Source of the DNA: Syntrophaceae bacterium
GTDB taxonomy: Bacteria > Desulfobacterota > Syntrophia > Syntrophales > Smithellaceae
Assembly (NCBI GenBank): GCA_003142535.1
Contig: PLMQ01000053.1
Span: 16,435 to 80,434 of the forward strand
Length of the DNA stretch: 64,000 nucleotides
Direction: 5' to 3'
Position 1 is the first letter of the stretch; every line of letters starts with the position of its first letter. A program made the translations under genes and the position numbers. The notes under the pieces were generated by a model that ran no database searches, was not told where the DNA came from, and saw only the letters and a list, made by a program, of their open reading frames with translations. This document shows positions 2,815 to 61,865 of this stretch, piece after piece.

Positions 2815-3951
2815 ATGAAAAAATTATTATTTATATTTGGTACCCGCCCCGAAGCCATTAAAATGTTGCCGATTGTTATCTTTGCACGTCAAAATTATGC
2901 AGATAAATTTGTAGTGAAAACTTGCGTGACTGGGCAACATCGTGAAATGTTGGATCAAGTTTTAGAACTTTTTGACATTACCCCTGATTATGATCTGGAT
3001 ATTATGGCGCATGGGCAGGATCTGTATGATGTGACAGCCAAGGCATTATTAGGGTTACGCCCGGTATTGGCTGAATATAAGCCGGATTGCGTTTTAGTTC
3101 ATGGTGACACTACCACAACATTAGCAGCCAGTTTAGCCGCATATTATCAACGAATTCCAGTTGCCCACGTAGAAGCAGGGTTGCGGACTCATAATATTTA
3201 TAGCCCATGGCCAGAGGAGATTAACCGTACAGTTGCTAGCTGTGTTGCCGAATTTCATTTTGCACCAACCGAAGTTAGTAAAGCCAATCTTAACCGTGAA
3301 AATATTACTAAAAATGTTGTAGTAGTAGGTAATTCAGTAATTGATTCTTTATTGTGGATAGTCGATAAAATAAAGCATGATGATAAATTAAATAGGAAAT
3401 TAACCCAGCAATTTGAAGCTAAAGGCTTGGATTTCAGTAAACAAACTATTTTAATTACCGGCCATCGCAGGGAAAACTTTGGCGATGGTTTTGTTAGTAT
3501 TTGTCAGGCAATTAAAGAAATTGCACTGTCTCATCCTAAAGTGCAGCTGGTCTATCCGGTACACCTAAACCCTAATGTACAAAAACCAGTTTATGAAATT
3601 TTGTCAGGTCTTTCCAATATCCATTTAATAGAGCCGCAGGATTATTTGCCTTTTGTATTCTTAATGCAAAAGGCCTATACTATTTTAACCGATTCAGGTG
3701 GGATACAGGAAGAAGCGCCAAGTCTTAAAAAGCCAGTTTTAGTTATGCGTGATACCACTGAGAGACCTGAGGCAGTCAGTGAAGGCACTGTCAAACTGGT
3801 TGGCACTAATAAGGAATTAATTGTTTCATCGGTTAAAGAATTATTGGCGGGCGGCGAAATGTATCAGTCAATGACCGGAGCTAAAAACCCTTATGGTGAT
3901 GGAACAACATCACAATTAATTTTGAATTACCTATCGCAGAAATTAATCTGA
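2815..3951 (+). CDS. wecB: UDP-N-acetylglucosamine 2-epimerase (non-hydrolysing)
   Basis: [18 protein letters not shown] and [10 protein letters not shown] signature stretches. Length is 378 aa. Confidence 0.9.
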
Positions 3952-3956
3952 TTCTT

Positions 3957-5147
3957 ATGCAAAAAATACTTAATTATTCAAAAGTGCTTTACTATAGTGC
4001 GCGCAGAAACGGCATAAAAAAAACATTTGGGAAATTATTTGCCGAATATAATCCATGCGTGCAGCGAAAATACAAGATTCAGTATGAACAATTTGTGAAA
4101 AGTATATCTGCAAATACCAAAATAGCTATTTTGTTTACAGGCGTTCTTTATGAAAAAGATATGAATCAACGTTCGATTAATTGTGCTAAATATCTTGTTT
4201 CTAAAGGATATACTGTGTTGTTTATACTCTGGCGATGGTCGCCCAACCATGTGGTAGATGATGCATTTAATGAGGTAGATCGAAGGACATTTTGCATTCC
4301 TCTTTATTCGCTGGATTTATCGCAATTAACTTTTGTAGAAGAGATTATTGGAGTTTGTAATGTGGTAAATCCAGTGCTAACAGAACTAATCCAGCAAATT
4401 AAGCAACTTGGTGGAAAAACATTTTATGATATTCACGATGATTGGGAAGGGTTTAAGCGCGTTGGTTTTGCTGATTGGTATTCCGGGCTGGCAGATGAAG
4501 AGCAACTGATAAAAATTACGGATAGGGTATCTGCCGTCACCAAATCACTTGCAGACAAATTTAAAGAGGTGCGCAAGGATATTATAGTCAGCCCGAATGG
4601 TTTTAGTATTGATGTAGTCGGTAAGCACAATCGTAATATTATTCGGCCAATTAAGGATGAAATAGTAATTGGTTATTTTGGACATCTCACGTCTAAGTGG
4701 ATTAACTGGCCGTTTGTCTTTAATTTGGCTAAAATCAATAAAGTTAGAGTGGAAATAATTGGTATTGGAGAATTGCCGCCATTAGTTGCAGAGTTTGAAC
4801 GTCATGGAATTATGTTTCATGGGAAAATTCCTGCTAATGAATTATATCTTTATGCTAAGAATTGGCACTTCGGTTTAGTGCCGTTTATTACCAGTCAGAT
4901 ATCGGTTGCCGCAGATCCGGTTAAAATTTATGAATATCTCTATTATGGTTTGACTTGTCTGGTAACTGGACTTCCTCATTTACAAGGCTGTCCCAATACT
5001 TTATATTTTAACGACACTGATGAGTTAAGTTATAAATATTTAGCCGATAATCATAATTTTTCAAACAGTGAATGCGTTGATAAGTTTCTCGAAACGAATG
5101 CTTGGGATAAACAATTTGACAAACTATTTGTAATGTCCAAAGATTAA
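3957..5147 (+). CDS. Hypothetical protein, possibly a GT-B type glycosyltransferase
   Basis: Long ORF 6 nt after wecB. The C-terminal FGLVPF..DPVKIYEYLYYGL weakly resembles a GT-B nucleotide-sugar binding region. No firm motif. Confidence 0.4.
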   Translation: MQKILNYSKVLYYSARRNGIKKTFGKLFAEYNPCVQRKYKIQYEQFVKSISANTKIAILFTGVLYEKDMNQRSINCAKYLVSKGYTVLFILWRWSPNHVVDDAFNEVDRRTFCIPLYSLDLSQLTFVEEIIGVCNVVNPVLTELIQQIKQLGGKTFYDIHDDWEGFKRVGFADWYSGLADEEQLIKITDRVSAVTKSLADKFKEVRKDIIVSPNGFSIDVVGKHNRNIIRPIKDEIVIGYFGHLTSKWINWPFVFNLAKINKVRVEIIGIGELPPLVAEFERHGIMFHGKIPANELYLYAKNWHFGLVPFITSQISVAADPVKIYEYLYYGLTCLVTGLPHLQGCPNTLYFNDTDELSYKYLADNHNFSNSECVDKFLETNAWDKQFDKLFVMSKD

Positions 5148-8196: not shown

Positions 8197-8895
8197 ATGG
8201 AACTGATTGGCGAAGGCATAAAGAAGGCGTTGGAACTGATTATCAGTTTTGATCCCGAAGTAATGGGAATTACATTTCTCTCGTTAAAAATTTCCGGCCT
8301 GGCTACACTCATTAGTCTGTTCCTCGGCATATCGGCAGGTACAGCCATTGCTCTTATTAACTTTCCCGGTAAAAAAATTGTCATCAGTTTAGTTAATACC
8401 GGTATGGGGCTGCCGCCGGTCGTCGTTGGTCTTTTCGTCACAGTCTTAATCTGGCGCAATGGTCCTCTGGGATTTTTGGAAATTCTCTATACGCCTTCTG
8501 CGATGATTATTGCCCAGGCTATTATTGCCACACCGATAGTTATGGGAATTTCTCTTGCTGCCATTCAGCACTTGCCCGAAAATTTGCGTCTGCAAATTTT
8601 ATCTTTAGGTGCAACACGTCTGCAAATGGTCTGGGTTCTGATTAAAGAAGCGCGGTTGCCGCTTTTGGCTGCGGTAATGGCTGGTTTTGGCGGTGTGATT
8701 TCCGAAGTCGGCGCATCCATTATGGTCGGTGGCAATATCAAAGGATACTCCCGTGTATTAACAACGGCAACGGTCATGGAAACAAGTAAAGGAAATTTTG
8801 ATATTGCTATAGCTTTGGGCATTATTTTATTGCTTCTTGCTTTCTGTGTTAATCTTATTCTTACGCAAATTCAGCAAAGGCAACGCCCGAGATGA
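8197..8895 (+). CDS. ABC transporter permease, tungstate/molybdate-type (TupB-like)
   Basis: Polytopic membrane protein. It overlaps the downstream ATPase by 4 nt. The TupB-like assignment comes from remembered similarity only. Confidence 0.6.
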   Translation: MELIGEGIKKALELIISFDPEVMGITFLSLKISGLATLISLFLGISAGTAIALINFPGKKIVISLVNTGMGLPPVVVGLFVTVLIWRNGPLGFLEILYTPSAMIIAQAIIATPIVMGISLAAIQHLPENLRLQILSLGATRLQMVWVLIKEARLPLLAAVMAGFGGVISEVGASIMVGGNIKGYSRVLTTATVMETSKGNFDIAIALGIILLLLAFCVNLILTQIQQRQRPR

Positions 8896-9980
8896 CAAAT
8901 AATATTTTAATGCAAGTTAATAATCTTGTTCTGGATCGGAGAAGCGTAACCGTTCTTGATATTGAAAAATTAAATGTCACTGCCGGTAAAATCCTGGTTT
9001 TAATCGGTCCCAATGGCGCCGGAAAATCAAGTCTGCTTTTGACGCTGGCTGGATTACTGAAGTTTCAAAAAGGAAGATTAAATTATCAGGGAATATCGAT
9101 TAAATCAGGCAAAGATCGTCTGATGTTAAGGAGAAACTGTTCTGTAGTCTTTCAGGAGTCATTACTACTCGATGAAACAGTTTATAAAAATGTGGCGCTC
9201 GGTCTTAAACTGCGCGGTAAAAATAATAATATAAAAGCGGACGTTGAAGAAGCCCTGTATTATTTCGGGGTAAATAATTTGGCTCAAAGATCAGCAAGAA
9301 ATCTGTCCGGCGGTGAAGCCAAAAGAGTATCTCTGGCACGCGCTTTTGCCCTTAAACCGCAACTGATACTGTTGGATGAGCCATTTAGTTCTCTCGACCC
9401 TCCTACAAATGAAGGGATAATTGATGATTTGCAGCGTATACTGGAAAAAACAAAAATTACCGCAGTAATAGCATCGCATAATCGTGAAGAAACATTGCGA
9501 TTGGCGCACGATGTTGCTGTAATGAATAATGGTAAAATTATTCAGATTGGGACGGCAGCGGAAGTATTCAATCAACCGGTGAACGAATTTGTGGCGGATT
9601 TTGTCGGAGCAGAAACTATTTTAGAAGGTATTGTTAAGAGCAATCATGATGGCATAATGATGATCACCGTCAAAGACAAGACAATAGAAGCAACCGGAAA
9701 CTATGCCGGTGGTGAAAAAGTTTATTGTTGCCTCCGACCGGAGAACATCATGATTAGCCGGGAAATTCAAAATAAATATAGCGCCCGTAATTTCTTTCCC
9801 GCAAAAGTTAAAAAAGTGCATAATCAGGGTATATTTAATAAACTGATTTTAGATTGCGGCTTTCCTCTGGTTGCCTATATTACCAAAAATTCCTGCGAGG
9901 ATTTGAGTTTGCAAGAAGATGATTCTGTTGTTGCTTCTTTTAAGGCTACGGCTGTACATGTAATTCGTCGGGAAAAATAG
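8892..9980 (+). CDS. ABC transporter ATP-binding protein with C-terminal TOBE-like domain
   Basis: Walker A GPNGAGKSS, signature LSGGEAKR, Walker B LILLDEP. A roughly 120 aa C-terminal extension resembles those of molybdate/tungstate/sulfate importer ATPases. Confidence 0.85.
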   Translation: MTNNILMQVNNLVLDRRSVTVLDIEKLNVTAGKILVLIGPNGAGKSSLLLTLAGLLKFQKGRLNYQGISIKSGKDRLMLRRNCSVVFQESLLLDETVYKNVALGLKLRGKNNNIKADVEEALYYFGVNNLAQRSARNLSGGEAKRVSLARAFALKPQLILLDEPFSSLDPPTNEGIIDDLQRILEKTKITAVIASHNREETLRLAHDVAVMNNGKIIQIGTAAEVFNQPVNEFVADFVGAETILEGIVKSNHDGIMMITVKDKTIEATGNYAGGEKVYCCLRPENIMISREIQNKYSARNFFPAKVKKVHNQGIFNKLILDCGFPLVAYITKNSCEDLSLQEDDSVVASFKATAVHVIRREK

Positions 9981-10036
9981 TTTGTTAACCGAATTATCCC
10001 GTATAAGCAGGGGTAAAATACTCGTGATTTATGTTT

Positions 10037-10178
10037 TACCATTCCTAAATCAAAGATGATATTGAGGCGGCAAGAAGGAGGCGACGAGGCGTATAACCTA
10101 AAGGTCACGCGTTGTACATACGTTAAGGAACCCGACGACGCTGCTAACAAAGATAGCGCTTTAATTTAGAATTGGTAT
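10037..10178 (+). repeat. Rep-A element, copy 1 (hairpin element bounded by terminal inverted repeats)
   Basis: TACCATTCCTAAATCAAAG..CTTTAATTTAGAATTGGTAT inverted termini. Internal GAGGCGGCAAGAAGGAGGCGACGAGGCGTA..TACGTTAAGGAACCCGACGACGCTGCTAACAAAGATAGCGC is shared with 4 other loci. Confidence 0.85.
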
Positions 10179-10257
10179 TAGCTGGAAAATGATGAGAGAA
10201 TTTGTTAAGATATTAAAGTATATTAATTAAATAGATTAGAAAGGGAAGGTGGCGGAA

Positions 10258-10794
10258 ATGATAGGAGAAAAAATTAGAAACGCAATGAACGAGCAAATAA
10301 AGAATGAACTCGAATCATACTATATTTATTTATCCATGGTTGCTTATTTTCATGCGCAAAATCTGGATGGCATGGCGCACTGGATGCGCTGCCAGGCGCA
10401 TGAAGAAATGATTCATGCCATGAAATTCTTCGATCATATACTGGATCGGGGAGGAAATGTTACGCTGCTGGATTTGAAACAGATTAAAACTACCTGGAAA
10501 AAACCGCTGGAAGCATGGCAGGATGCCTATGAGCATGAAAAATTCATTACGGCGAAGATCAATAACCTGACCAAAATATCCCGTGAAGAAAATGATTATA
10601 CATCGGAGCCCCTTCTTGCCTGGTTTTTAAATGAGCAAATCGAAGAAGAAAAGAATACGGAAAAAGTGTCGCGGGAACTGGCACTGGTGGAAGCATCAAA
10701 AGAAGGCATTCTGATGCTCGATCGGGAACTGGCAACCCGTGTATTTGTGGCCGGTTCTCCTCTTGATCCATTAGCTTATAATGTAATAGCTTAG
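10258..10794 (+). CDS. Ferritin (non-haem, Ftn-like)
   Basis: ELESYYIYLSMVAYF..QAHEEMIHAMKFFDHILDRGG di-iron ligand pattern. GGAAGGTGG lies upstream of ATG 10258. Confidence 0.8.
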   Translation: MIGEKIRNAMNEQIKNELESYYIYLSMVAYFHAQNLDGMAHWMRCQAHEEMIHAMKFFDHILDRGGNVTLLDLKQIKTTWKKPLEAWQDAYEHEKFITAKINNLTKISREENDYTSEPLLAWFLNEQIEEEKNTEKVSRELALVEASKEGILMLDRELATRVFVAGSPLDPLAYNVIA

Positions 10795-12633: not shown

Positions 12634-12683
12634 GCATAATATGAGTAGCGTTATACCCTCAATTTGCAGTGTTTAGGTTTTTA

Positions 12684-12802
12684 TTCGTGAAACTCAAATT
12701 CCGAAAGCGAAGCGTATTGGAATTGGTAAGTTGAACAATCCCGCGAAGCGGAGGGTATGATATCCCGCAGCGTGCTGCGGAATCAGGGTTCATACCCGTG
12801 AT
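12684..12802 (+). repeat. Rep-B composite element
   Basis: TTCGTGAAACTCAAATTCCGAAAGCGAAGCGTATTGGAATTGGTAAGT + CAATCCCGCGAAGCGGAGGGTAT + ..CATACCCGTGAT. The module order matches 46707-46840. Confidence 0.85.
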
Positions 12803-26134: not shown

Positions 26135-26141
26135 TATGATA

Positions 26142-26214
26142 ATCACGGGTACGAACTCCAAAGCAAGATTTGGAAACAGATCCCAAAGTAAGCTTTGGAG
26201 TTCATACCTGTGAT
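26142..26214. repeat. Long imperfect palindrome built from the Rep-B CACGGGTA end module
   Basis: ATCACGGGTACGAACTCCAAAGC..GCTTTGGAGTTCATACCTGTGAT forms a stem of about 23 bp, starting 8 nt after the HD-GYP stop. Confidence 0.75.
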
Positions 26215-26318
26215 TGTGAGTGGGGAATAAAAAAGAAGAATAAAATATTAAAACATGTTAAAATCATCGTAATTTTTAAGAACTTGGTAATTTTGCAAAC
26301 AGTAATTCTTGAATATTT

Positions 26319-26669: not shown

Positions 26670-26690
26670 CATCTTTCCCACAGCTATCTT

Positions 26691-26954
26691 ATACCAATTC
26701 TAAATTAAAGATGATATCGAGGCGGCAAGGAGAAGGCGACGAGACGTATGTGCGCCACGCCTTAATGGCGTAGCTCACCGGTAAGGAAATGATCTGTTTT
26801 TTTGTGCCCCCTTTTGGGGATGCACTCCCGGAAGTAATACGTTGAGAAAGCCGATGACCCAGGCACTTGTGACCTTCAGGTTACTCGTGACCTTCAGGTT
26901 ATGCACCGGGCAGGTGTTGCCAACAAAGATAGCGCTTTGATTTAGAATTGGTAT
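26691..26954 (+). repeat. Rep-A element, copy 2, with nested insertions
   Basis: Perfect termini ATACCAATTCTAAATTAAAG..CTTTGATTTAGAATTGGTAT. The central loop is expanded and there are two tandem GTGACCTTCAGGTTA modules at 26869 and 26887. Confidence 0.85.
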
Positions 26955-27259
26955 TAAGGTTTCGGTTTGGCAGCGACTTTATAATATTCTTTGGCCTTCA
27001 TGCAGTCTGTAAATTCCTGTTGAAATATTTGATCGATTACAGATATCGTGGTTTCAGCGCTTTCTTTGGCTGGGAATTCGGCTTTTCTGTTTTCGATAAT
27101 CTTCATTGCTTTTTGTTCGCATTCCGATTTATCGGCGAGTATTTGCTTTTCATCTTTGATCGTCAAATTATACCAACTGAACATACCAATTGCCGCGGGT
27201 ATGCAGCTTGTTGTAATCATTGCCATCATTAGGGCGATCAGGAAATAATGCTGTTTCAA
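26954..27259 (-). CDS. Small lipoprotein, unknown function
   Basis: Lipobox ITTSC after a hydrophobic leader. The first base of the stop-codon triplet (26954) is the last base of Rep-A copy 2. Confidence 0.45.
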   Translation of the reverse strand: MKQHYFLIALMMAMITTSCIPAAIGMFSWYNLTIKDEKQILADKSECEQKAMKIIENRKAEFPAKESAETTISVIDQIFQQEFTDCMKAKEYYKVAAKPKP

Positions 27260-27334: not shown

Positions 27335-28462
27335 TTAAATCAACGCCAGACTATCCGCTATAGCCAATCCTGCTCGCGTTGGAGTCAGAAACCCTCTATT
27401 TAATTTCAAAATTTTATTTTCCAGAAGTTTATCAATTATCATTTTCTTCTCAATGAGCAAATCGGTTTTATATTTGCTCTTATAAAGCTTGAGGTCTATT
27501 CCAGCTTTTGTGCGCAGTCCCAGAAACAAAGCTTCCAGTTGGAGTTGCTCTAGCGTGAGCTCTTCAGAATTATCCACAGGCAACGTACCCTGTTTGATTT
27601 TCTTGAGGTAACCATTGACCGAAGGCAAATTCCACCAGCGTTTTTGATGGAGATAAGAATGCGCTCCGGGACCTAATCCCAGATAGGGTGTGTGCTGCCA
27701 GTATTTCATGTTATGCCTGGATCGCAGATTATTGGAACGGGCAAAGTTGGATACTTCATAGTGGATATAGCTAGATTCTTCCAGAAGATCGGCTGTAGTC
27801 ATGAAGAATTTTACCTGCGCATTTTCTTCGGGCAGAGAAAAACCGCTTTGTTTATACCTTTTGTAAAGAGGAGTTCTTTCATCCAGTGAAAGCTGATAAC
27901 AAGAAATATGTTCTGGTGAAAAAGACAGGGCTTTTTGCAGAGTCTTCTTCCATAGCTTTATATCCTGATTATGAATTCCGTAAATCAAATCCATGCCGAT
28001 ATTATTAAATCCGTTGGCTCTTGCATAATCAACGGCAATAATCGCTTCACTTACTGTGTGCCTGCGCCCAAGGAAATCAAGCACTCCATCATCAAAGGAC
28101 TGAATGCCGATATTTAAGCGGTTAATACCGAGAGAACGTAGTGCCCGCAAATACTCGTCGGATACATCACCCGGATTAACTTCGATGGTAATTTCGGTCC
28201 GAGGGCTGATTTTATATGTTTTATTGATTGACGAGAAAATATCAGCAAGTTGCTGGACGGTCAGCAGGGAAGGGGTACCGCCGCCGATATAAATGGTGTC
28301 AAAATAAGTAAAGTCATGACGGTAAAATTCAATTTCTTTTTTCAGCGCTGCTAAAAATTGGGAAAAGAGATTAATTGATTTAATCGAGTAAAAGCTGCAG
28401 TAGCCGCATTTACTCAAGCAAAAAGGAATGTGGATATACAGGCCGGCTTGCTCACTTTGCAT
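27335..28462 (-). CDS. hemW: Radical SAM haem chaperone HemW (HemN-like, oxygen-independent coproporphyrinogen oxidase family)
   Basis: LYIHIPFCLSKCGYCSF CxxxCxxC motif and GGGTPS. The preferred start is the internal ATG at 28462 (MQSEQAGLYIHIPFC). lepA-hemW adjacency is common. Confidence 0.85.
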   Translation of the reverse strand: MQSEQAGLYIHIPFCLSKCGYCSFYSIKSINLFSQFLAALKKEIEFYRHDFTYFDTIYIGGGTPSLLTVQQLADIFSSINKTYKISPRTEITIEVNPGDVSDEYLRALRSLGINRLNIGIQSFDDGVLDFLGRRHTVSEAIIAVDYARANGFNNIGMDLIYGIHNQDIKLWKKTLQKALSFSPEHISCYQLSLDERTPLYKRYKQSGFSLPEENAQVKFFMTTADLLEESSYIHYEVSNFARSNNLRSRHNMKYWQHTPYLGLGPGAHSYLHQKRWWNLPSVNGYLKKIKQGTLPVDNSEELTLEQLQLEALFLGLRTKAGIDLKLYKSKYKTDLLIEKKMIIDKLLENKILKLNRGFLTPTRAGLAIADSLALI

Positions 28463-28518
28463 AATTCTAACCCAATATATTTGTTTTTTCCCCAATTTTC
28501 AGAAATAATATTCTGCTT

Positions 28519-28628
28519 CATATTCAAGATGATAGCAAGGCGGCAAGGAGGAGGCGACGCAGGCGTACTTTGTTTGTACGTCGAGAAGCCGATGGACGCA
28601 GCCAACGCTTGAAGACGAAATAGAATAA
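28519..28628 (+). repeat. Rep-A element, copy 3 (core only)
   Basis: GATGATAGCAAGGCGGCAAGGAGGAGGCGACGCAGGCGTAC TTTGTTT GTACGTCGAGAAGCCGATGGACGCAGCCAAC. It fills the lepA-hemW spacer, antisense to both genes. Confidence 0.8.
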
Positions 28629-30425
28629 CTAATCATTGTCCGACTTCAACACAGCTAAAAAAGCGCTCTGGGGAATACTGACCGAACCAATCATCTTCAT
28701 GCGCTTTTTACCCTCTTTTTGCTTTTCCAGTAATTTCCTCTTCCGGGTAATATCGCCACCGTAGCATTTAGCGGTTACATCTTTGCGGAATGCCGAAATA
28801 GTGCTACGGGCGACAATCTCCGAGCCGATGGCGCCCTGAATAGCTATCTTAAACATCTGGCGCGGTATTTCTTCCTTTAACCTTTTACAGGCTGAAAGAG
28901 AACGGGAGCGGGCGCGGTCACGGTGGACGATTTGCGAGAGAGCATCAACTTTTTCCCCGTTGACAAGGATATCAACCAAGACCAGGTTGCTTTCACGGTA
29001 GTCAATAATGTTGTAGTCAAAGGAGCCATAGCCTTGTGTTACGGATTTGAAGCGGTCGTAAAAATCAAAAATAACTTCGGCCAGCGGCATTTCATAAGAT
29101 AGCTCCGCACGCCCTGGTCCGGTGTAATTAAGATTGGAATTAGTGCCACGCTTTTCCATACAGAGCTTCATGACGGCTCCAAGATAACGTTCCGGCAGCA
29201 TCATACTCGCCCGGATATATGGTTCTTCGCCAATGGCAATATCCGAAGGATCGGGATAGTGTGTCGGGTTATCTACATAAAGAATAGTTCCGTCTTTCAG
29301 TGTAAAGCGATAGCGGACACTGGGAACGGAAAGGATGATGGAGAGGTTATATTCCCTCTCCAGACGTTCCTGGACGATGTCCAGGTGCAGCAGTCCCAAG
29401 AAACCGCAGCGGAATCCCTGTCCAAGAGCGGCGGAAGAATCTTTTTCGTAAATAAAAGAAGCGTCATTGAGCTTGTATTTATCGAGAGAATCAGCCAAAT
29501 CCTGATAATCGTCGGAAGCAATTGGATAAATGGAAGCAAAGACTACCGGTTTAATCTCTTTAAAACCGGGCAGAGGATTTAAACATGGTTTGGACTGTAA
29601 AGTAATTGTGTCGCCGGTGCGGACATCGGCTACGGTTTTTACGCCGGCAATGATATAGCCAACATCACCGGCAGAGATTTTATCTCTTTTGGAACGTGTT
29701 AGTAAAAAGTGTCCTACTTCTTCCACTTTGTAAGTCGCACCATTAGACATAAACTGGATGATATCCCCGTTTTTCACAGTGCCTTCAAAAACGCGGCAGT
29801 GAATGATGGTGCCGCGGAAAGAGTCATAATGAGCATCGAAAATTAACGCAGCTAAAGGATTATCGGAGTTGCCTTGCGGAGGAGGAATACGCGTGACTAT
29901 AGCTTCGAGAATCTCTTCAATTCCGATACCTACTTTGGCCGAACATTTCAAATGAGTATCAGGGTCAAGCCCCAATTCCGAATCGATTTCGTTAAGAACG
30001 CTGTCGATATCGGCGGAAGGCAAATCAATTTTATTGATTATGGGAATGATTTCCAGATTGTGTTCCATAGCCAGATACAAATTGGCCAGTGTCTGCGCCT
30101 GAACTCCTTGCGCCGCATCAATCAGCAGAAGAACTCCTTCACAGGAGGCCAGTGAACGGGAAACTTCATAGGAAAAATCAACATGACCCGGTGTGTCAAT
30201 CAGATTCAAAATATAGTCCTTGCCGTCATGCGCATGATAGGGCAGGGATATAGCATTGCTCTTGATAGTAATGCCGCGCTCTCTTTCAATATCCATATTA
30301 TCCAGAATTTGATCTTGAAAATTACGTTCATTGCAGACGCCGGTAAGCTGAATCAGTCTGTCGGCGAGCGTTGATTTGCCATGGTCAATATGGGCGATTA
30401 TGCTGAAATTTCTTATGTTATCCAT
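28629..30425 (-). CDS. lepA: Translation elongation factor 4
   Basis: [29 protein letters not shown] and the characteristic LepA C-terminal domain. 598 aa. Confidence 0.95.
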   Translation of the reverse strand: MDNIRNFSIIAHIDHGKSTLADRLIQLTGVCNERNFQDQILDNMDIERERGITIKSNAISLPYHAHDGKDYILNLIDTPGHVDFSYEVSRSLASCEGVLLLIDAAQGVQAQTLANLYLAMEHNLEIIPIINKIDLPSADIDSVLNEIDSELGLDPDTHLKCSAKVGIGIEEILEAIVTRIPPPQGNSDNPLAALIFDAHYDSFRGTIIHCRVFEGTVKNGDIIQFMSNGATYKVEEVGHFLLTRSKRDKISAGDVGYIIAGVKTVADVRTGDTITLQSKPCLNPLPGFKEIKPVVFASIYPIASDDYQDLADSLDKYKLNDASFIYEKDSSAALGQGFRCGFLGLLHLDIVQERLEREYNLSIILSVPSVRYRFTLKDGTILYVDNPTHYPDPSDIAIGEEPYIRASMMLPERYLGAVMKLCMEKRGTNSNLNYTGPGRAELSYEMPLAEVIFDFYDRFKSVTQGYGSFDYNIIDYRESNLVLVDILVNGEKVDALSQIVHRDRARSRSLSACKRLKEEIPRQMFKIAIQGAIGSEIVARSTISAFRKDVTAKCYGGDITRKRKLLEKQKEGKKRMKMIGSVSIPQSAFLAVLKSDND

Positions 30426-34539: not shown

Positions 34540-34819
34540 TCACGGGTATTATATCCCTGCTTATACGGGATAATTCGACCAGCAAGCTTCAGCACACTTT
34601 GTTTCTGAAGTTTGGGTCTCATTACAACTTGCCAATTCCGACTTGTGACCTTTAGGTTATACGCTTCGCCCAGCACTCGTGACCTCTCGTCACCTTTAGG
34701 TGGTCAGGTTATACGCCGGGTTACGCTTTCAGAATTGGAGCTTCACGACCGCCGCTTACGCAGGATAGTTCAGCTTGCCAATTCCACTATGCTTCGCTTT
34801 CAGAATAGGAGCTTCACTA
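34540..34819 (-). repeat. Rep-B modular array (about 280 bp) filling most of the cmk-rpsA spacer
   Basis: Starts TCACGGGTAT immediately after the cmk stop. Contains GGGATAATTCGACC, CTTCAG..CTGAAG hairpin, TTGCCAATTCC and GTGACCTTTAGGTTAT modules, and two ..CAGAAT(T/A)GGAGCTTCAC ends. Confidence 0.85.
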
Positions 34820-34920
34820 ATAAAGCGGGAAAATGTGCCGGAATTATCTTGCTATTTATTTTTCAGTATGTTACGCGATATTTCTTAATTAGTTTTACTA
34901 AAAACAGGGGGATTAGTTTA

Positions 34921-39159: not shown

Positions 39160-39280
39160 ATCAAAGATGATATATATTTTATTCGTGAAACTCCAATTCT
39201 GAAAGCGAAGCGTAGCGGAATTGGCAAGTTGAATCCGCCTATGGCGGACTACGCAATCCCGCGATGCAGAGGTTAGTGAT
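39160..39280 (+). repeat. Chimeric repeat: 14-nt Rep-A left-arm fragment joined to a Rep-B element
   Basis: ATCAAAGATGATAT (39160-39173) equals the Rep-A left arm. TTCGTGAAACTCCAATTCTGAAAGCGAAGCGTAGCGGAATTGGCAAGT.. runs from 39182. Confidence 0.7.
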
Positions 39281-41070: not shown

Positions 41071-41115
41071 ATCCCCCCATCTGGCAGAGACTCTTCCAAA
41101 TGAGGGGATTTTTTT
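41071..41115 (+). terminator. Rho-independent terminator (end of a candidate small RNA or leader)
   Basis: ATCCCCCCATCTGG (loop CAGAGACTCTT) CCAAATGAGGGGAT followed by a 7-T run. Confidence 0.55.
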
Positions 41116-41125
41116 ATAATGAGTC

Positions 41126-41199
41126 CCGAGTTTCAGAAACGAAGTGCACTGAAACTAGTAGGACGAATTATCCCCGGAGCGAAGCGTAAGGGGATAATC
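41126..41199 (+). repeat. Rep-B-related double hairpin
   Basis: AGTTTCAG..CTGAAACT and ATTATCCCC..GGGGATAAT hairpins around the GAGCGAAGCGTAAG core shared with Rep-B modules. Confidence 0.6.
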
Positions 41200-44964: not shown

Positions 44965-45231
44965 ATGAAAACTGTTGGATTGATAATTACTATTATCGTA
45001 TTGTTTTTCATAGGAATAATGTGCTTATTTTTTCCTGAGAAAGTTCAAGAATTTCAGATTAAATCATTGAGTTGGGGTTTGGGAAAGTATATAAGGCCTA
45101 GTCGCGCCGATAGATTTGTTAAATCATATCAATATATAAGTCATATCAAAGGTTTTGGGTATGTGGCTATTCTTATGGCTTGTTTTCTGACATGGGGATT
45201 TATTCATAAATACATCTTGAAATTAGGGTAA
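44965..45231 (+). CDS. Small two-TM membrane protein, candidate immunity protein
   Basis: ATG lies 4 nt after the extended Rhs-tip frame ends. 88 aa with hydrophobic N- and C-terminal segments. Confidence 0.4.
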   Translation: MKTVGLIITIIVLFFIGIMCLFFPEKVQEFQIKSLSWGLGKYIRPSRADRFVKSYQYISHIKGFGYVAILMACFLTWGFIHKYILKLG

Positions 45232-45365
45232 TGAAAACTTTGGTGTGTCGGGAATCGATTACATTTCTGAGGGAAAGAGGGTCGCTTCTTGACAACTTGA
45301 CATTTGCTCTTTGACAATTAGAACAAGAAATCACCAGAAATCATGGATGCCAATTTGCAGTCAGA

Positions 45366-45473
45366 AGTATACCGCGACGGCAAGGAAGAGGCTCCGCAGG
45401 CGTATATTTGAATACGTTTTTTGAAACCGATGACGAAGCCAACAAAGGTAGACGAATGAATGCTAATTGGTAT
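45366..45473 (+). repeat. Rep-A element, copy 4 (degenerate)
   Basis: GACGGCAAGGAAGAGGCTCCGCAGGCGTAT ATTTGA ATACGT..ACCGATGACGAAGCCAACAAAGGTAGA..AATTGGTAT. Confidence 0.65.
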
Positions 45474-45501
45474 AAGATAACTTTTTTATGGGGAGCAACA
45501 C

Positions 45502-45849
45502 GTGCTATTCAAAGGTCTGGTGACTATTCTGGCTTGCGATCTTATTTTCGCAATTATCGCCATTCCCTTAATTCTCCGAAAAGTGCCAAGAAACTCGGTC
45601 TACGGTTTTCGCACACGATCAACATTAGAAAATGATTTCGTCTGGTATAAAGCAAATGCCTATTTCGGTCGAGTCTTTTTCATCTCCAGTTTTATCTCGG
45701 CGCTATTAATTGTATTCCTTTATTTCTCTTACCTCGGTCCTGTGCAGAATTTCTTAGAGGCCAGTATTGCTGTTTTGGTCGCTCCTCCAATGGTCGCGGT
45801 GTTGTTAACACTCCGCTACATAAGGTCTATTCGTTCCTCGCACCGGTGA
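45502..45849 (+). CDS. SdpI/YhfL-like membrane protein
   Basis: PRNSVYGFRTRSTLENDFVWYKAN resembles the SdpI-family loop motif. 4 TM segments. GTG start. Confidence 0.5.
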   Translation: MLFKGLVTILACDLIFAIIAIPLILRKVPRNSVYGFRTRSTLENDFVWYKANAYFGRVFFISSFISALLIVFLYFSYLGPVQNFLEASIAVLVAPPMVAVLLTLRYIRSIRSSHR

Positions 45850-46226: not shown

Positions 46227-47290
46227 TTTTCATCCCCCCTGATTAAAATTAAATATTCATATTTATATAGATCATAAACAAATTGCCGGATAATTTCCTG
46301 TTCATCAGTGTGTGGTACCGATAAACATAGCGCGGTGCGAACCTTGTCATTGAAGTTTAACTTAAGAAAATCGGCAAATGGACCCCGCACGACTTTATAA
46401 TTAAACGTTTCGGCGATTCTCTGCAAGTAAGAAATTTTAATTGTATATTCATCATGGCCTTTAAGGACAATCCTCTCAGGAGCGCCAGATGAATCAAAAT
46501 GGATGTAAGGTTTTAAATAAGCTGGCACCTTTGCTTCGCAACTATGTTCGCTCAGATATATGTATTTTATTCCGGCCAGGCATAAGTTTTCCAATGCTTC
46601 CCACGCACCGGTATTTATGCTCTCGCCCTCTGTTATGGATAATTGGTATTTTTCAATAAAATCTATAGCTTTCTCGTACGATAATTCATCATCTGAATTA
46701 TCTTTGTTCGTGAAACTCCAATTTCGCAAGCGAAGCGTAGCGGAATTGGCAAGTGGAACAATCCCGCGAAGCGGAGGGTATAATACCCCACAGCTTGCAG
46801 CTAAATATTTCCGAAGATTGCTTTGGGGTTTATACCCGTGGGTGTCAGAATAAAATGCTAATGTGGGCAGATCCCCCAGATTTTCGTTCATTATTACCAT
46901 GTCGAAAAGAGAAAGTGAATTTATTTCAATTTGCAAAATGTCTTTTTCTAAAAAATTTACGGGGGATCCCTGCAAAATTTCTTTTTGTTTGGCTAAGAGA
47001 TAGGGAGAAATATCGAGCATAGTTGCCTTGAGCCGCGGATTTAGAGAGAGAAAATCATGCATAAGATATCCCATGCCGCCGCCGATTTCGAGAATGGTGC
47101 TGATATTGCCCATAGGGATTATTTTTTCTAAGTAACGATAAAGCTGTGCGCCGAATGGTTCGTTGGATTGCAAAGCCTTACGGCAGGGGCTTTGGGGAGG
47201 ATAAAGCGCATTACAGACAGTAAGCTCCCAGCCTAGTGAATTCAAATCGTTGATATGGTATTTATTGGTTGTATTTAAAAAAAAGTCCAT
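46223..47290 (-). CDS. SAM-dependent methyltransferase (MidA/DUF185-like) carrying an in-frame Rep-B insertion
   Basis: ILEIGGGMGYLMHDFL motif I and VIMNENLGDLPT (compare the NE..DALP block of MidA-type enzymes). Residues HGYKPQ..WSFTN are encoded by the repeat. Confidence 0.6.
   Translation of the reverse strand: MDFFLNTTNKYHINDLNSLGWELTVCNALYPPQSPCRKALQSNEPFGAQLYRYLEKIIPMGNISTILEIGGGMGYLMHDFLSLNPRLKATMLDISPYLLAKQKEILQGSPVNFLEKDILQIEINSLSLFDMVIMNENLGDLPTLAFYSDTHGYKPQSNLRKYLAASCGVLYPPLRGIVPLANSATLRLRNWSFTNKDNSDDELSYEKAIDFIEKYQLSITEGESINTGAWEALENLCLAGIKYIYLSEHSCEAKVPAYLKPYIHFDSSGAPERIVLKGHDEYTIKISYLQRIAETFNYKVVRGPFADFLKLNFNDKVRTALCLSVPHTDEQEIIRQFVYDLYKYEYLILIRGDEK
46707..46840 (+). repeat. 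Rep-B composite element inside a coding region
   Basis: TTCGTGAAACTCCAATTTCGCAAGCGAAGCGTAGCGGAATTGGCAAGT + CAATCCCGCGAAGCGGAGGGTAT + ..TATACCCGTG, collinear with 12684-12802. Confidence 0.85.
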
Positions 47291-54927: not shown

Positions 54928-55186
54928 GAACCCCAAAGCAGCTATGGTGTATTTTATACCCTCCGCTGCGCGGGATAATTCGACCATCAAACTTCAGCTT
55001 GTGACCTTTAGGTTGCGCACTTTGTTTCTGAAGTTTTGGTCTCATTACCATCCGCTGAGCGGGATAATTCGACCTGCAAACTTCAGCTCACTTTGTTTCT
55101 GAAGTTTGGGTCTCATTACAACTTACCAAGTTCAACTTGTGACCTTTAGGTTATGTACTACGTTTTTAAAATTGGAGTTTCACGAA
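54916..55186 (-). repeat. Rep-B modular array (about 270 bp) filling the whole rimI-pyrK spacer
   Basis: TCACGGGTAT..ATACCCTCCGCTGCGCGGGATAATTCGACC..two CTTCAG/CTGAAG hairpin modules..two GTGACCTTTAGGTT modules..AATTGGAGTTTCACGAA, ending 4 nt before the pyrK ATG. Confidence 0.85.
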
Positions 55187-55190
55187 GAAA

Positions 55191-56009
55191 ATGAAAAAAA
55201 ATATTTACATCGGTGAAATCTTAAAAAACGAAGAAATTCAGAATGATTATTTTCTGATGAAAGTGGCTTTAAACAATAGTTTTGCAGAGCCGCAACCGGG
55301 TCAATTTGTAATGATCAGGATTGCCGGTTTGAGCGAACCATTTTTAGGCCGGCCGATCAGTGTATATTCATTTTCCCGCGGTAAATCTTTTTGTACAATG
55401 GAGCTGTTGTACCGTGTTGTGGGCAGAGGAACGAAAATAATGGCTGGTTTAATTAAAAATTCGCAGGTGGAAATTCATGGGCCATTAGGCACTCCTTTTG
55501 CAATATTTCCGGCAAAAGAAAAAATTGTTTTTATAGCAGGGGGAATTGGAGTAGCTCCGCTTTCATTACTGGCTCATCATTTGTGCAAAAACGTCTGCTA
55601 TGACAAATCGCAGATGACGTTTTATCTAGGCGCGCAAACTGCGGAGGCGATCATCGGTTTGGATAGATTAAAAAAACTTTGCTACGATATTCATATCTAT
55701 ACGGATGACGGAACTCTCGGCGGTAAATCGCTGGTGACACAGGCTTTTCAAAAGGACATTAAGAAATATCAGCCGGAAAACACGGTTATTTATGCTTGCG
55801 GCCCCAATGGTATGCTCAGTGTTCTGGCAAAGATGCTGAAAAGCAAAAAATATAACTGTCAGGTATCGCTGGAAGAGCGTATGGCCTGCGGAACAGGGGC
55901 CTGTATGGGCTGCGCTGTGGCAATAAGAGATAATAACGGCGCTCTTGCTTATAAAAGAGTGTGTTCGGATGGCCCGGTGTTTAATCTGCAAGAAGTTATT
56001 TGGGAGTAA
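55191..56009 (+). CDS. pyrK: Dihydroorotate dehydrogenase electron-transfer subunit
   Basis: FAD/NAD-binding fold (RPISV, GGIGVAPL) and the C-terminal 2Fe-2S motif CGTGACMGC. Confidence 0.9.
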   Translation: MKKNIYIGEILKNEEIQNDYFLMKVALNNSFAEPQPGQFVMIRIAGLSEPFLGRPISVYSFSRGKSFCTMELLYRVVGRGTKIMAGLIKNSQVEIHGPLGTPFAIFPAKEKIVFIAGGIGVAPLSLLAHHLCKNVCYDKSQMTFYLGAQTAEAIIGLDRLKKLCYDIHIYTDDGTLGGKSLVTQAFQKDIKKYQPENTVIYACGPNGMLSVLAKMLKSKKYNCQVSLEERMACGTGACMGCAVAIRDNNGALAYKRVCSDGPVFNLQEVIWE

Positions 56010-57686: not shown

Positions 57687-60600
57687 TTAAAGTGTTTCTT
57701 TAATCTCCTTAATCAATAAATCTAATTTCTTTTTTGATACGGGGTAGGGCGTTTTGAGTTCCTGGGCGAACAGAGATACTTTGTACTCTTCAATCATCCA
57801 AAATAATTCTTCAATTTTAATTTTCTTTTCCGCAGAAGTATCAGGCGCTATGTTTTTCTGAAATTCATCCAATTGTTTGCTGTAAAATGAAATATCCCGA
57901 ATTTTCCTCTCTGCAGAGGATAGATTCAAGTTGCCGCGCTCAGCACGCATGGTAAGGGCTTTTAGATAACGGGGCAATTCTTTCATCCGGTCAAATGAAT
58001 AAAGTTCCGGAAAATTGACTGGAACAAGATGCTGTAATTCAAGGGTGCTTTCATCTAAAAATTCCCGGACAGGATTGTCGCGGATATTCTTTTTTCTGAG
58101 CCTTTCTAAAATAATACATGTGTCCGCGACCGAATTTAAAACGGGATTTATAAAATCCAGGACTTGCTGGCCGTATGCCAATATTCGGGTATTAACGGTA
58201 GCGGCATGACTTAGAAAATCTTCCTGTCGGCGCCAGGGCTTTCTGAATAAATCATTTGTAATTCTTTTCATAATTGATTGTTCCAGCACTTTGGAATTGC
58301 CGATATTAGCGGAGAGTATTTTCCGTTCGTGGGTTATGGCAATGTTTTTTTTGAGCTGTTTAATCTTTTCTGCAAAATGAAGAAGGTAGAGTGCAGCAAT
58401 ACCATGAAGATGAACCGCTTCACTTTCTTTCCGATCAGGAAATAAGCGCAGATTTATCATGTCATCAACTGCCTGTAATGTCGGAAATACATAACCGGTT
58501 ACGCCCTGTTTACCTGTTAGAGGAATACTCTCCGGTAATTCGCCAAAGTCCCACCTTGTAATATTCTCTCTTTCCCAGCGGAGGCGGATTTCATCTGTAA
58601 CGGCTAGTTTTACTTTGCCGGAAATATCATTTTTCAAAATATTTATATCGCGACTGCTATTTATCTCCTGACCTTTATCGTCAATTGCATTGAAGCGGAT
58701 ATTTAAATGCTCCGGCAGTTTAGTCATGTCCCAGGCATCGGTTGGAATTGCCACCTGATATTTATCCTGAATGAATTGGCTTAACGCCTGAGGCAACGGT
58801 TTTTTCCATTGTTTGTTTTCTGCAATAAATATACTGGAGAAAGATGTTGCCTGCGGCAATTTGTGGCGAAGAGTTCTGGGCAGAGACTTCACTAAATAGG
58901 AAACTTTGTCCTGCATAAGCTTAGGCACAAAGCGTTCGATATTTTGTTCTGCGGCAGTAGAAACAAGCCCCAACGGTATTTTCATTGATACGCCATCATC
59001 ACTTTTTCCGGGATTGAATCGATAACCAAGGCTAAGTGTTGCATCGCCGATATTTATCTTATCGGGGTAAAGAGAAACTTCAGAAAGGTCAGGTTGACCG
59101 GCCTGAAAATCATTTTCGGAGAAACGCAGGAATTCATCGCTGCCTTTATCTTTAATGAGCTTCAGCAGTGATCTGATGTCGGAAATAATAGGCAGTCTTT
59201 CTTCATAGAGGCGGGCAATAGTTTCTTCATCAACGGCTAAACCGCGCCTGCGCAATTTATCTTCCATGGTTTTTATTTCTTCCCAAAGTGCTAAGTTATG
59301 TTCCAGAAAAGGTGGCCGGCGGCTGACTTCACCTCTAACCAGAGCTTCCCGGATAAAGATATCCTTTGCTTCCTGTGGATTGATTTTATCGTAAGTAACA
59401 TTTCTAGCCTCAACAATTGTCAGGCCAAAGAGAGTAACCTTTTCCCGGGCAACAACTTGTCCGCGGTTTTTCTCCCAGTGCGCCGCCGCATAAGTATATC
59501 GGCAATTATCCTTGCCTAATTCTTCGAGCCATTCGGACTTGATATTGGCGGCTGTGCGGGCAAAAAGGCGGGATGTCTGAGCAATTTCCGCGGCGACAAT
59601 CCAACTGCCTCCTCGGTTGAAAAGGCCGGAGCCTGGAAATAGCATCACTTCACGGCTTTTGGCTGCCAGATAGAAATTCTTTTCTTGCTTTTGCGCAATG
59701 TGGGAAAGATAGCCGCTTAAAATGCATTTATGAATCTTATCATAGATATTCTGATCAATTTCCATTTTAGTATGTTTTTTATGCTTAGTAATTTTTTTGT
59801 CGCCGGAAATAATACCCAGTATCTGATTACAGATATCCCGCCATTCAATCATTCGTTTGTAAGATAAAAAATGTTCATGGCAGAATTTGCGCATTTTGTT
59901 TTGGGTATGTAATTTTTCCAATGTATCGTGAAAATGATTCCAGATATTAAAATAAGTTATGAAATCCGATTCGAAATTTGCAAAGCGGGCATGGGCGGCG
60001 GCGGCCTGATCGGTTTTGTCGTAGGGGCGCTCCCGCGGGTCCTGAATACTTAAAGCTGCGGCGATAATAGCTACTTCTTTTGTGCATCCCGCCTTTTGTG
60101 CTTCTATTAATATGCGTGCTATACGCGGATCAAGCGGAAATTGAGACATGGAAAAGCCGATAGGCGTCAGTTTATAACTGACGGTTTCATCCGCCGTATT
60201 GCTTTTTTCGATTGCGCCCAGATCATATAGAATATCAATGCCATCACGGATGCTTTTCGGATGCGGAGAGTCAATAAATGGGAAAGTATTTACAGCACCA
60301 AGATTCAAAGAAATCATCCGCAAAATTACACCGGCGAGATTGGACCGCAGAATTTCCGGTGCCGTATAGAGCGGACGTTCTTGATAAGCATCCGCTGAGT
60401 ATAAACGAATGCAGACGCCATTTTGCACACGGCCGCAACGTCCTTTGCGCTGCTCGGCGCTGCTGCGGGAAATCGGTTTAATAGGCAGACCGGTTGTCTG
60501 GCTGCGGGGATTATATTCCAACTGCCTGGCCAATCCAGAGTCAATTACATATTTTATGCCGGGAATGGTCAGGGATGTTTCGGCAATATTAGTGGCGACA

Positions 60601-61640: not shown

Positions 61641-61729
61641 AAGTTGCTCCTTCAGAGAAACACAAAATACTACGAAAAAATCATTGGGCGAACAAAAAGC
61701 ATGATTGCACAAATGTTGGCGAGCGATTA

Positions 61730-61855
61730 ATACCAATTTCTCCATCAAAGCGCTATCTTTGTTGGCAGCGTCGTCGGCTTCCTCAGCGTATGTAAAATAC
61801 GCCTCGTCGCCTCCTCCTTGCCGCCTCGATATCATCTTTGATCTAGAAATGGTAT
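61730..61855 (-). repeat. Rep-A element, copy 5
   Basis: The reverse complement reads ATACCATTTCTAGATCAAAGATGATATCGAGGCGGCAAGGAGGAGGCGACGAGGCGTAT TTTAC ATACGCTGAGGAAGCCGACGACGCTGCCAACAAAGATAGCGCTTTGATGGAGAAATTGGTAT. Confidence 0.85.
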
Positions 61856-61865
61856 AAGCGGCTAA

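Follow-up and report, generated by a model that had tools for sequence, protein, structure and literature searches.

Rep-A, a dispersed palindromic repeat of Desulfobacterota that is probably a non-autonomous transposon

The stretch analysed here (the window) comprises 64,000 nucleotides (nt) of contig PLMQ01000053.1 from a Syntrophaceae bacterium; the source population is metagenomic and has been seen in several samples. Among its genes lie five copies of Rep-A, a short repeat with inverted ends that a preliminary description, made from the sequence of the window, had singled out as a possible mobile element or structured RNA. We describe these copies and their relatives in other genomes, and weigh what kind of element they represent.

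Five copies of Rep-A in the window

A covariance model (R1) was built from an alignment (A2) of 56 Rep-A copies, 55 of which come from other genomes and one of which, c5, comes from the window. With filters off, the model recovers exactly five copies in the window, with E values from 1e-8 to 4e-37, and beyond these no match in the whole 64 kb is better than E = 0.4. The highest score, 136 bits, belongs to 61729-61855(-), followed by 108 bits for 10036-10179(+) and 83 bits each for 28509-28633(+) and 45346-45474(+). The fifth copy, c2, is matched as two pieces, 26691-26806 and 26867-26955(+), because of its inserts. A 20-nt Rep-A terminus with up to 3 mismatches has 5 matches in the window (0.02 expected) and a 28-nt Rep-A core has 3 (0 expected). 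Terminus, core and model matches agree with the five copies of the preliminary description at about the coordinates given there. With boundaries refined to leave out target duplications, the copies and their inserts are:

c1, 10037-10177, plus strand: 141 nt, subfamily A
c1 insert, 10094-10111: 18 nt, TAACCTAAAGGTCACGCG, in the apical loop
c2, 26692-26953, plus strand: 262 nt, subfamily A, with two nested inserts
c2 inserts, 26750-26829 (in the apical loop) and 26859-26915 (at GACGAC^GC)
c3, 28511-28625, plus strand: 115 nt, an older copy of another subfamily, with degenerate inverted repeats
c4, 45348-45472, plus strand: 125 nt, degenerate, core variant GACGGCAAGGAAGAGGCTCCGCAGG
c5, 61731-61854, minus strand: 124 nt, nearest of the copies to the subfamily A consensus

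All five copies are intergenic. Perfect target duplications flank c2 (TTA at 26689-26691 and 26954-26956) and c5 (TTA at 61855-61857 and 61728-61730); the right-hand TTA of c2 is at the same time the TAA stop codon of a minus-strand open reading frame (ORF), 26954-27259. The flanks of c1 are TTT (10034-10036) and TTA (10178-10180), and those of c4, GGA and TAA, do not match each other. Copy c1 is in sense orientation and has on one side a modC-like ABC ATPase gene that includes a TOBE domain (8892-9980), on the other a ferritin gene (10249-10794); c4 lies between ORFs 44965-45231 and 45502-45849. Copy c3 is antisense to both of its neighbours, a hemW-like radical SAM gene (27335-28495, minus) and lepA (28629-30425, minus). 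It had been described as a core only; it retains the degenerate inverted repeat of another subfamily (TATTCT..TTCAAG / CTTGAA..AGAATA) around the core variant GACGCAGGCGTAC...GAGAAGCC.

Copy c5 is in sense orientation between a 441-amino-acid gene (61866-63191, minus) and an hrpA-like helicase ORF (57687-61835, minus). Its right arm (61742-61750) reads TTGATGGAG in place of the consensus TTGATTTAG; the change removes an in-frame TAG and supplies an ATG in the hrpA-like frame, so that mechanical ORF calls start inside the element. By comparison with E. coli HrpA, the true start of the hrpA-like gene is probably ~60-80 codons further downstream.

Architecture and compensatory change

Rep-A is a long imperfect palindrome of 120-124 bp (~122 bp), bounded by imperfect inverted repeats of ~20 bp that start T(A/T)CC(A/G)NTT. 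On the purine-rich strand, this terminus and an outer arm of 16-20 bp come first and are followed by a short inner stem, UAUC/GAUA in the subfamily of the window; an asymmetric internal loop places GA opposite AACAAA. The centre consists of a left tract, GGCGGCAAGGAGGAGGCGACG(C)AGG (also given as GGCGGCAAGGAGGAGGCGACGAGG), an apical stem of 6-7 bp, GCGTAT/ATACGY, with a loop of 5-7 nt, and a right tract, GAGGA(A)GCCGACGACGNNGCCAAC, after which comes the mirror-image arm. The apical stem varies in c3 (GCGTAC/GTACG) and c2 (ACGTAT), and both it and the terminal inverted repeats read as they had been described. Arm sequences define the subfamilies: TACCATTTCTAAATCAAAG in A, TACCATTTCGCTTTC in B and TTCCATTTTGCATTCAAG in C, with further arm types in several GC-rich Geobacter subfamilies.

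The compensatory stem changes reported from the window alone are borne out by the 56 copies of A2. Of the cells in paired columns, 97.9% pair (87.7% in shuffles) and 135 are double changes (45 in shuffles); 0 of 500 shuffles reach the observed values. In a control on the same alignment, in which the partner was slid by 1-3 columns, only 24-43% of cells pair. The inner stem occurs in more than eight compensatory variants, including UAUC/GAUA, UAAC/GUUA, CAUC/GAUG, UGAG/CUCA and CAGG/CCUG. Covariation is confined to the arms and the apical stem. The pairs predicted inside the left and right tracts are invariant and, since they never vary, covariation is uninformative on the core helices. The pairing of GGCGGC with GCTGCC that had been proposed is either invariant or partly mismatched (GACGCC, GAAGCC and others), and gains no support from covariation.

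A surprising feature of Rep-A is the constancy of its centre. The left and right tracts are purine-rich and not complementary to each other, but are alike as direct repeats (GGAGGCGACGAGGCG and GGAAGCCGACGACGC). Column identity is ~93% in the right tract, a level maintained across three orders, compared with 62-67% in the arms. The left tract was the search key for collecting copies, so part of the core conservation reflects ascertainment and the 99% identity of the left tract itself means nothing; the difference in identity that separates the right tract from the arms is nevertheless real for the sampled lineages. Exchange of arms by recombination, seen directly in chimeric copies, could contribute to it.

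RNAfold predicts that the two tracts stack as tandem G.A mismatches. As they are non-complementary and stack in this way, the purine-rich strand folds better than the other strand: its energy is -48.8 kcal/mol (z = -7.4), that of the opposite strand -36.0 kcal/mol (z = -5.1). The pair at the base of the apical stem is GU in 37 copies, GC in 15 and AU in 4, and the next pair is GU in 45, GC in 6 and AU in 2, with no A.C.

Such a fold raises the question of whether Rep-A acts chiefly as a structured RNA with a function of its own, be it a stabiliser or processing site in cis or a hairpin that binds protein; its transposon-like ends would then serve only its spread, and its purine tracts, with their GGA motifs and tandem G.A pairs, would bind a protein or the ribosome. 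We consider this unlikely. The much better fold of the purine-rich strand, the alternation of consensus G.U pairs with G-C and A-U, the number of compensatory inner-stem variants, the conservation of unpaired tracts, mismatches and internal loops, and the tolerance of the loop for inserts and length change all speak for it. However, the core helices are invariant and hence without covariation, part of the conservation is the collection effect just described, and further evidence, from orientation and substitutions, is given below.

The same columns bear on whether Rep-A encodes a small protein (MISRRQGGGDEAY...), a proposal that is hardly credible. An ATG stands three codons before AGG CGG CAA GGA in many subfamilies, and c1 contains a 37-codon ORF. 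However, the T of this ATG is a covarying stem position (U.G 38, G-C 15), there is no ATG in subfamily B, the loops differ in length by non-multiples of 3, the frame of the right tract differs among subfamilies and subfamily C has early stops. Rep-A is non-coding.

Target duplications and the case for transposition

For the analysis of target duplications, element bounds were set at TACC/TTCC...GGTA/GGAA, which gave 54 distinct copies from the window and ~100 public loci. The 3-nt flanks are identical in 34 of these 54 copies, whereas 2000 permutations of the right flanks gave a mean of 12.4 and a maximum of 24. The identical pairs are TTA/TTA (18), TAA/TAA (11), TCA/TCA (3) and TGA/TGA (2), and only 4 TNA/TNA pairs differ in their middle base. 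Among the 54 copies, identity is not raised for flanks of 2, 4 or 5 nt, and no target consensus wider than TNA emerges from 37 clean cases defined by stricter boundaries. The target duplications imply that the copies arrived by transposition. The preliminary description had favoured a MITE (miniature inverted-repeat transposable element), and Rep-A has the corresponding features: it is small, non-coding, bounded by inverted repeats, dispersed and flanked by a 3-bp TNA duplication.

Of the 37 clean insertions, 13 duplicate a TNA that serves a neighbouring ORF as its TAA or TGA stop codon (3.2 expected, p = 8e-6). ORFs of at least 80 codons on either strand were considered, and the expectation was taken from random TNA sites within 100 nt, a crude baseline in that it includes TNA sites inside genes. 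The stop codons TAA and TGA, like their complements TTA and TCA, conform to TNA, and many of the insertions that survive therefore lie exactly on stop codons. Duplication of the target would restore the stop codon hit by the insertion. This pattern is consistent with selection for harmless sites acting together with the TNA preference, and provides a clear case of a TNA-targeting element entering gene ends harmlessly.

Copies occur in both orientations, as had been noted for the window. In 53 cases the upstream gene and the element run in the same direction and in 34 they run in opposite directions, a modest excess of borderline significance. Where the element ends within 30 nt of a stop codon, 29 copies are sense and 27 antisense. 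The GC skew of the locus, read in the orientation of the element, is positive in 34 cases and negative in 45; in the window, where it is positive throughout, 4 copies are on the plus strand and 1 is on the minus strand. The orientation of Rep-A is close to random relative to both genes and GC skew.

These observations bear on a different mode of movement, in which Rep-A would be a palindrome of REP/RAYT type or derived from IS200/IS605, moved as single-stranded DNA by a Y1 (HUH) transposase. REP/RAYT and IS200/IS605 systems make no target duplication and insert beside a fixed tetra- or pentanucleotide. The hairpin architecture, conserved mismatches and asymmetric fold of Rep-A would suit such an origin, which is nonetheless highly improbable: it is contradicted by the 3-bp TNA duplication with its variable middle base, there is no orientation bias relative to GC skew and no Y1 transposase gene recurs near the copies.

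The copies also show the decay that is typical of MITEs. Internal deletions are found at loci L103, L074, L077 and L022 (in L103, L074 and L022 between the direct-repeat tracts), and chimeras of arm types at L070, L073 and L032. Core-less mini elements of 53 nt (L110, 5262-5314; L132/L140) consist of two Rep-A arms and a short loop, without the purine-rich centre. Nested inserts occupy Rep-A copies at two hot spots. On two contigs of one metagenome-assembled genome (MAG), Syntrophaceae fen_1160, an identical copy (L026:2581-2706 and L095:45-169) has the same right flank and different left flanks, which suggests either that copies recombined or that the assembly was joined at the repeat.

We therefore favour the view, with a probability of roughly 0.8, that Rep-A is a non-autonomous DNA transposon, a non-coding MITE of ~120-124 bp with TNA as its insertion site. 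A transposase whose gene lies elsewhere in the genome would cut a TNA target with a 3-nt stagger and join the element to it; once the gaps were repaired, TNA would stand on either side of the element. Given the 3-nt stagger, the enzyme may resemble that of the IS1031 group of the IS5 family.

Several results weigh against this view. No autonomous element with Rep-A termini was found in the window, 116 genome loci and a metagenome scan, so that the transposase-bearing parent envisaged in the preliminary description has not come to light in any of these. The 1402 flanking ORFs (~0.9 Mb), once clustered, contain no recurrent transposase-like family near the copies, only host genes. No half-elements bracket an ORF; the half-element matches, such as that between phnE and phnG (L031), are truncations. 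The metagenome scan for a terminus joined to non-MITE sequence returned chance matches and a mini element but no insertion sequence (IS). Empty sites were also sought: all 13 of 13 public contigs that encode the same LepA carry c2 and c3, so no empty allele is seen there, and the metagenome collection does not contain the empty site reconstructed for c5. The GC-rich Geobacter copies L048, L078, L089 and L094 lack TWCC ends and have no clear TNA flanks. The ends of Rep-A, TACC or TTCC, also differ from those of the IS1031 group, in which inverted repeats start GAA or GAG (ISLrh: GAACCTGTCTAGTATCT; PMC12016507). Finally, a classical MITE is best conserved at its ends, and a right tract at ~93% identity between arms at 62-67% would better fit a functional structured nucleic acid.

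Other searches gave a similar picture. The 25 Pfam families listed in summary for the ORFs of the window include no transposase, and BLAST found no Rep-A match in plasmids. A search for solo termini recovered truncated and core-less copies. In cross-species comparisons of empty sites (L070/L054; L030/L083/L071), the sequences are too diverged to read.

In our reading, the constraint on the centre acts in still-propagating lineages, in which the centre would be needed in cis for spread, and probably not at individual host loci. Hidden Markov model scores are alike for sense (~102 bits) and antisense copies (~99 bits). Of the single-copy stem transitions relative to the subfamily consensus, counted as distinct events, 14 keep pairing on the purine-rich strand and 8 on the other (p = 0.29); an apparent 16:2 bias disappeared (14:8) once search-pattern positions had been dropped and events de-duplicated. 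As sense and antisense scores are alike and stem transitions show no strand bias, conservation appears to be set in the propagating lineages. The centre may have been kept as a platform for binding the transposase or an accessory factor, or as a fold-back that joins the ends, rather than for any service to flanking genes.

The same results count against a functional RNA, which finds no support in the tests of orientation, conservation, substitution or promoters. Orientation to genes is near random, sense copies are conserved to the same degree as antisense ones, transitions do not favour the purine-strand fold and a promoter scan of c5 and the sequence adjoining it found no promoter-like site. 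Even at E <= 10, Rfam yields no matching family, and most of the Geobacter metallireducens relatives described below have diverged cores, although the authors of that genome likewise guessed at RNA. A related proposal combines both ideas: the centre, apical hairpin and internal loops would form a functional module of their own, a protein-binding RNA or single-stranded DNA with tandem G.A and GGA/AGGAGG motifs, carried on interchangeable transposon arms across three orders of Desulfobacterota. This proposal is rather unlikely; if true, Rep-A would be a mobile vehicle for a structured element, beyond a plain MITE.

Distinctly unlikely is that Rep-A has become a host-adopted DNA site comparable to the BIME/REP clusters of enterobacteria, with its tracts bound by a nucleoid-associated or regulatory protein and kept for chromosome organisation or regulation. 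The direct-repeat likeness of the two tracts would agree with this, as would the further short repeat modules, several in number, that are combined into BIME-like mosaics in the window and in related genomes. In addition, a filled site common to L004 and L013 is ~98% identical (2 differences in 123 nt, by inspection) between flanks of 86-93%, and some positions are common across species, Gmet_R1005 of G. metallireducens corresponding to GSU0160.1 of G. sulfurreducens. However, we know of no binding protein or motif for the tracts, the copies undergo ordinary decay, truncation and nested insertion, and the target duplications indicate arrival by transposition.

Other candidate identities were discarded. 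A hammerhead-like CUGANGA in c5 has a CUGA that is not conserved (most copies have GTTGAGG or GTCGAGG) and no Rfam match. Nothing convincing was seen by eye for a sigma-54 promoter, a sigma-70 promoter or an IHF site. Integron attC sites have R''/R' boxes (RYYYAAC...GTTRRRY) and lie in cassette arrays beside an integrase; by inspection, Rep-A has GCCAAC without a GTTGGC partner, and its copies are solitary.

With Rep-A regarded as a MITE, only its conserved purine-rich centre and its preference for stop codons go beyond ordinary MITE features, and of its features the non-palindromic centre alone has no explanation in ordinary MITE biology. Under this interpretation, a repeat strewn between the genes of syntrophic and metal-reducing Desulfobacterota receives a name and a mechanism. 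The genomes concerned are mostly metagenome-assembled, and repeats of this sort fragment assemblies and mislead gene callers, as illustrated by contigs that end in copies and by the hrpA-like ORF at c5. The "predicted short RNA elements" of Geobacter annotations would likewise be reinterpreted as relatives of a transposon.

Associated repeats, relatives and known systems

The intergenic regions of the source organism are mosaics of several short repeat modules, some of which enter Rep-A. The first, (CGC)GTGACCTTYAGGTTA, is a module of 15-18 nt that forms a small hairpin with one G.T pair. It is found in the window at 10094-10111, 26869-26883, 26887-26901, 34645-34660, ~55001-55014 and 55139-55154, and also in L041, L051, L061, L083, L092 and L110. 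It recurs in several genomes, in either orientation, as an insert in the Rep-A apical stem at GCGTA^T; it is present as a tandem pair inside the second insert of c2, and it makes up the end of a further repeat family (34566-34660 and 55060-55154). Its behaviour is that of a very small mobile or recombining module. An insert of ~80 nt occupies the apical loop of three Rep-A copies with different arm types (26750-26829; L071, ~3845-3925; L087, ~5062-5140). It is composed of a hairpin, GTGATCTRCGCC..GGCGYAGATCAC, then GGTAAGGAAATGATCTGTTTTTT, then a second hairpin, GTGCCCCC..GGGTGGCAC, and has no terminal inverted repeats; in L071 and L087 the GTAT of the host element is duplicated, with one copy on each side of the insert. 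The second hot spot, the GACGAC/GCTGCC junction (26859-26915 in the window; L027, L043, L047 and L054), is filled by GC-rich hairpins such as CCCGGCCTGCGCCGGGGCAGGCT.

Other modules lie outside Rep-A. A separate intergenic family, TTTTATTCGTGAAACTCCAATTCYGAAAGCGAAGCGTA..GGAATTGGYAAGTTGAA, is found at 12679-12783, 39177-39233, 41111-41167 and 46702-46806, and inverted at 34759-34825 and 55158-55192; L019 holds a pair 790 nt apart. A REP-like palindrome, GAATTATCCCGC..GCGGGATAATTC, is found at 9979-10027 (directly upstream of c1), 34540-34594, 54951-54999 and 55046-55088. It adjoins or fuses with other repeats, and in L105 (~2600-2650) it replaces the left arm of Rep-A. Finally, a 33-nt inverted repeat with a 9-nt spacer (AATCACGGGTACGAACTCCAAAGCAAGATTTGG / CCAAAGTAAGCTTTGGAGTTCATACCTGTGATT) lies at 26141-26215, just after a gene that ends at 26134.

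Rep-A is widely distributed in Desulfobacterota. A scan with the 21-mer GGCGGCAAGRAGRAGGCGACG, using one genome per species, gave at least 113 stretches, and among the matches listed the covariance model has ~113 matches in ~90 of the scanned loci. The hosts, again among the matches listed, comprise MAGs together with a few isolates and fall into four orders: Syntrophales (Smithella, Syntrophus, Syntrophaceae), Geobacterales (Geobacter, Oryzomonas, G. argillaceus), Desulfuromonadales and Desulfobacterales (Desulfonema, Desulfococcus, Desulfosalsimonadaceae). Matches of the 21-mer in high-GC Actinomycetota and Alphaproteobacteria lie inside genes and are unmatched by the model; we regard them as chance.

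The preliminary description could match Rep-A to no known family, and as regards Rfam this stands. At gathering scores, Rfam finds only a tRNA in the window and only a tRNA across 10 loci; at E <= 10 it finds nothing for c5 and one chance match (E = 9.8) for a Geobacter argillaceus copy. The exact core string does not occur in the literature searched. Distant relatives of Rep-A are, however, already recorded in Geobacter, though unnamed, unmodelled and with their mobility unrecognised. These are Gmet_R1001-1024, 24 "predicted short RNA elements" of Geobacter metallireducens (Aklujkar 2009, BMC Microbiol 9:109, Additional file 4). Similar sequences were reported in G. sulfurreducens (GSU0160.1, the counterpart of Gmet_R1005), G. 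uraniireducens and Desulfotalea psychrophila, and regulation by RNA was suggested; structure, target duplication, any claim of mobility and function are absent from that account (BMC Microbiol 9:109).

In a 2.2-kb search set, nhmmer with a Rep-A profile matches R1013 (E = 3e-6) and R1010 (E = 4e-5), both of which align on the reverse of the printed strand to profile positions 11-95; the remaining members match only around the palindrome, in the central 27 nt. Like Rep-A, the Gmet elements are intergenic, multi-copy, ~113 nt long and from Desulfobacterota, with a central palindrome, G(G/A)CGTAG..CTACGCC, and they have in common with it GATGAT, AGGAGGA, CGCAGGCGTAG, CTACGT(A/C)GAGGAGCC and GACGACG. 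They differ in that, in most of the 24, the flanking tracts have diverged and the arms are GC-rich and lack TWCC ends.

Among better-known repeats, REP/BIME elements differ from Rep-A in being palindromes of 20-40 nt associated with Y1 transposases, whereas Rep-A is ~122 nt long, with a 3-bp duplication and no recurring gene. ERIC elements of enterobacteria and Correia/NEMIS elements of Neisseria duplicate TA and are not known to have a cognate transposase. They resemble Rep-A as imperfect palindromes of ~100-155 bp that are intergenic, lie in both orientations and form long RNA hairpins when co-transcribed, and in having size variants, which reflect insertion or deletion at fixed internal positions; the size classes of these elements and their classification as MITEs have been described (PMC3184786). 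Rep-A shares no sequence similarity with them, duplicates TNA and is best conserved in a non-palindromic purine-rich centre. The Chunjie MITE from Geobacter uraniireducens Rf4, 178-235 bp long and A+T-rich, with 21-bp inverted repeats and 9-bp direct repeats (PMC3184786, PMC10969869), is a MITE in the same phylum, found in operons and intergenic regions. By its length and its 9-bp repeats it is a different family, and an assignment of Rep-A to Chunjie was rejected.

PIF/Harbinger and Tourist elements make TAA/TTA duplications. MITEs derived from IS5-like or PIF/Harbinger-like elements are comparable to Rep-A through their TNA-type duplication. Members of the IS1031 group encode a DDE transposase, often in two frames, whereas no transposase gene with Rep-A ends was found in the loci searched. 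The signature of this group is a TNA target with an exclusive 3-bp direct repeat (PMC12016507), and Rep-A likewise combines a TNA target with a 3-bp direct repeat.

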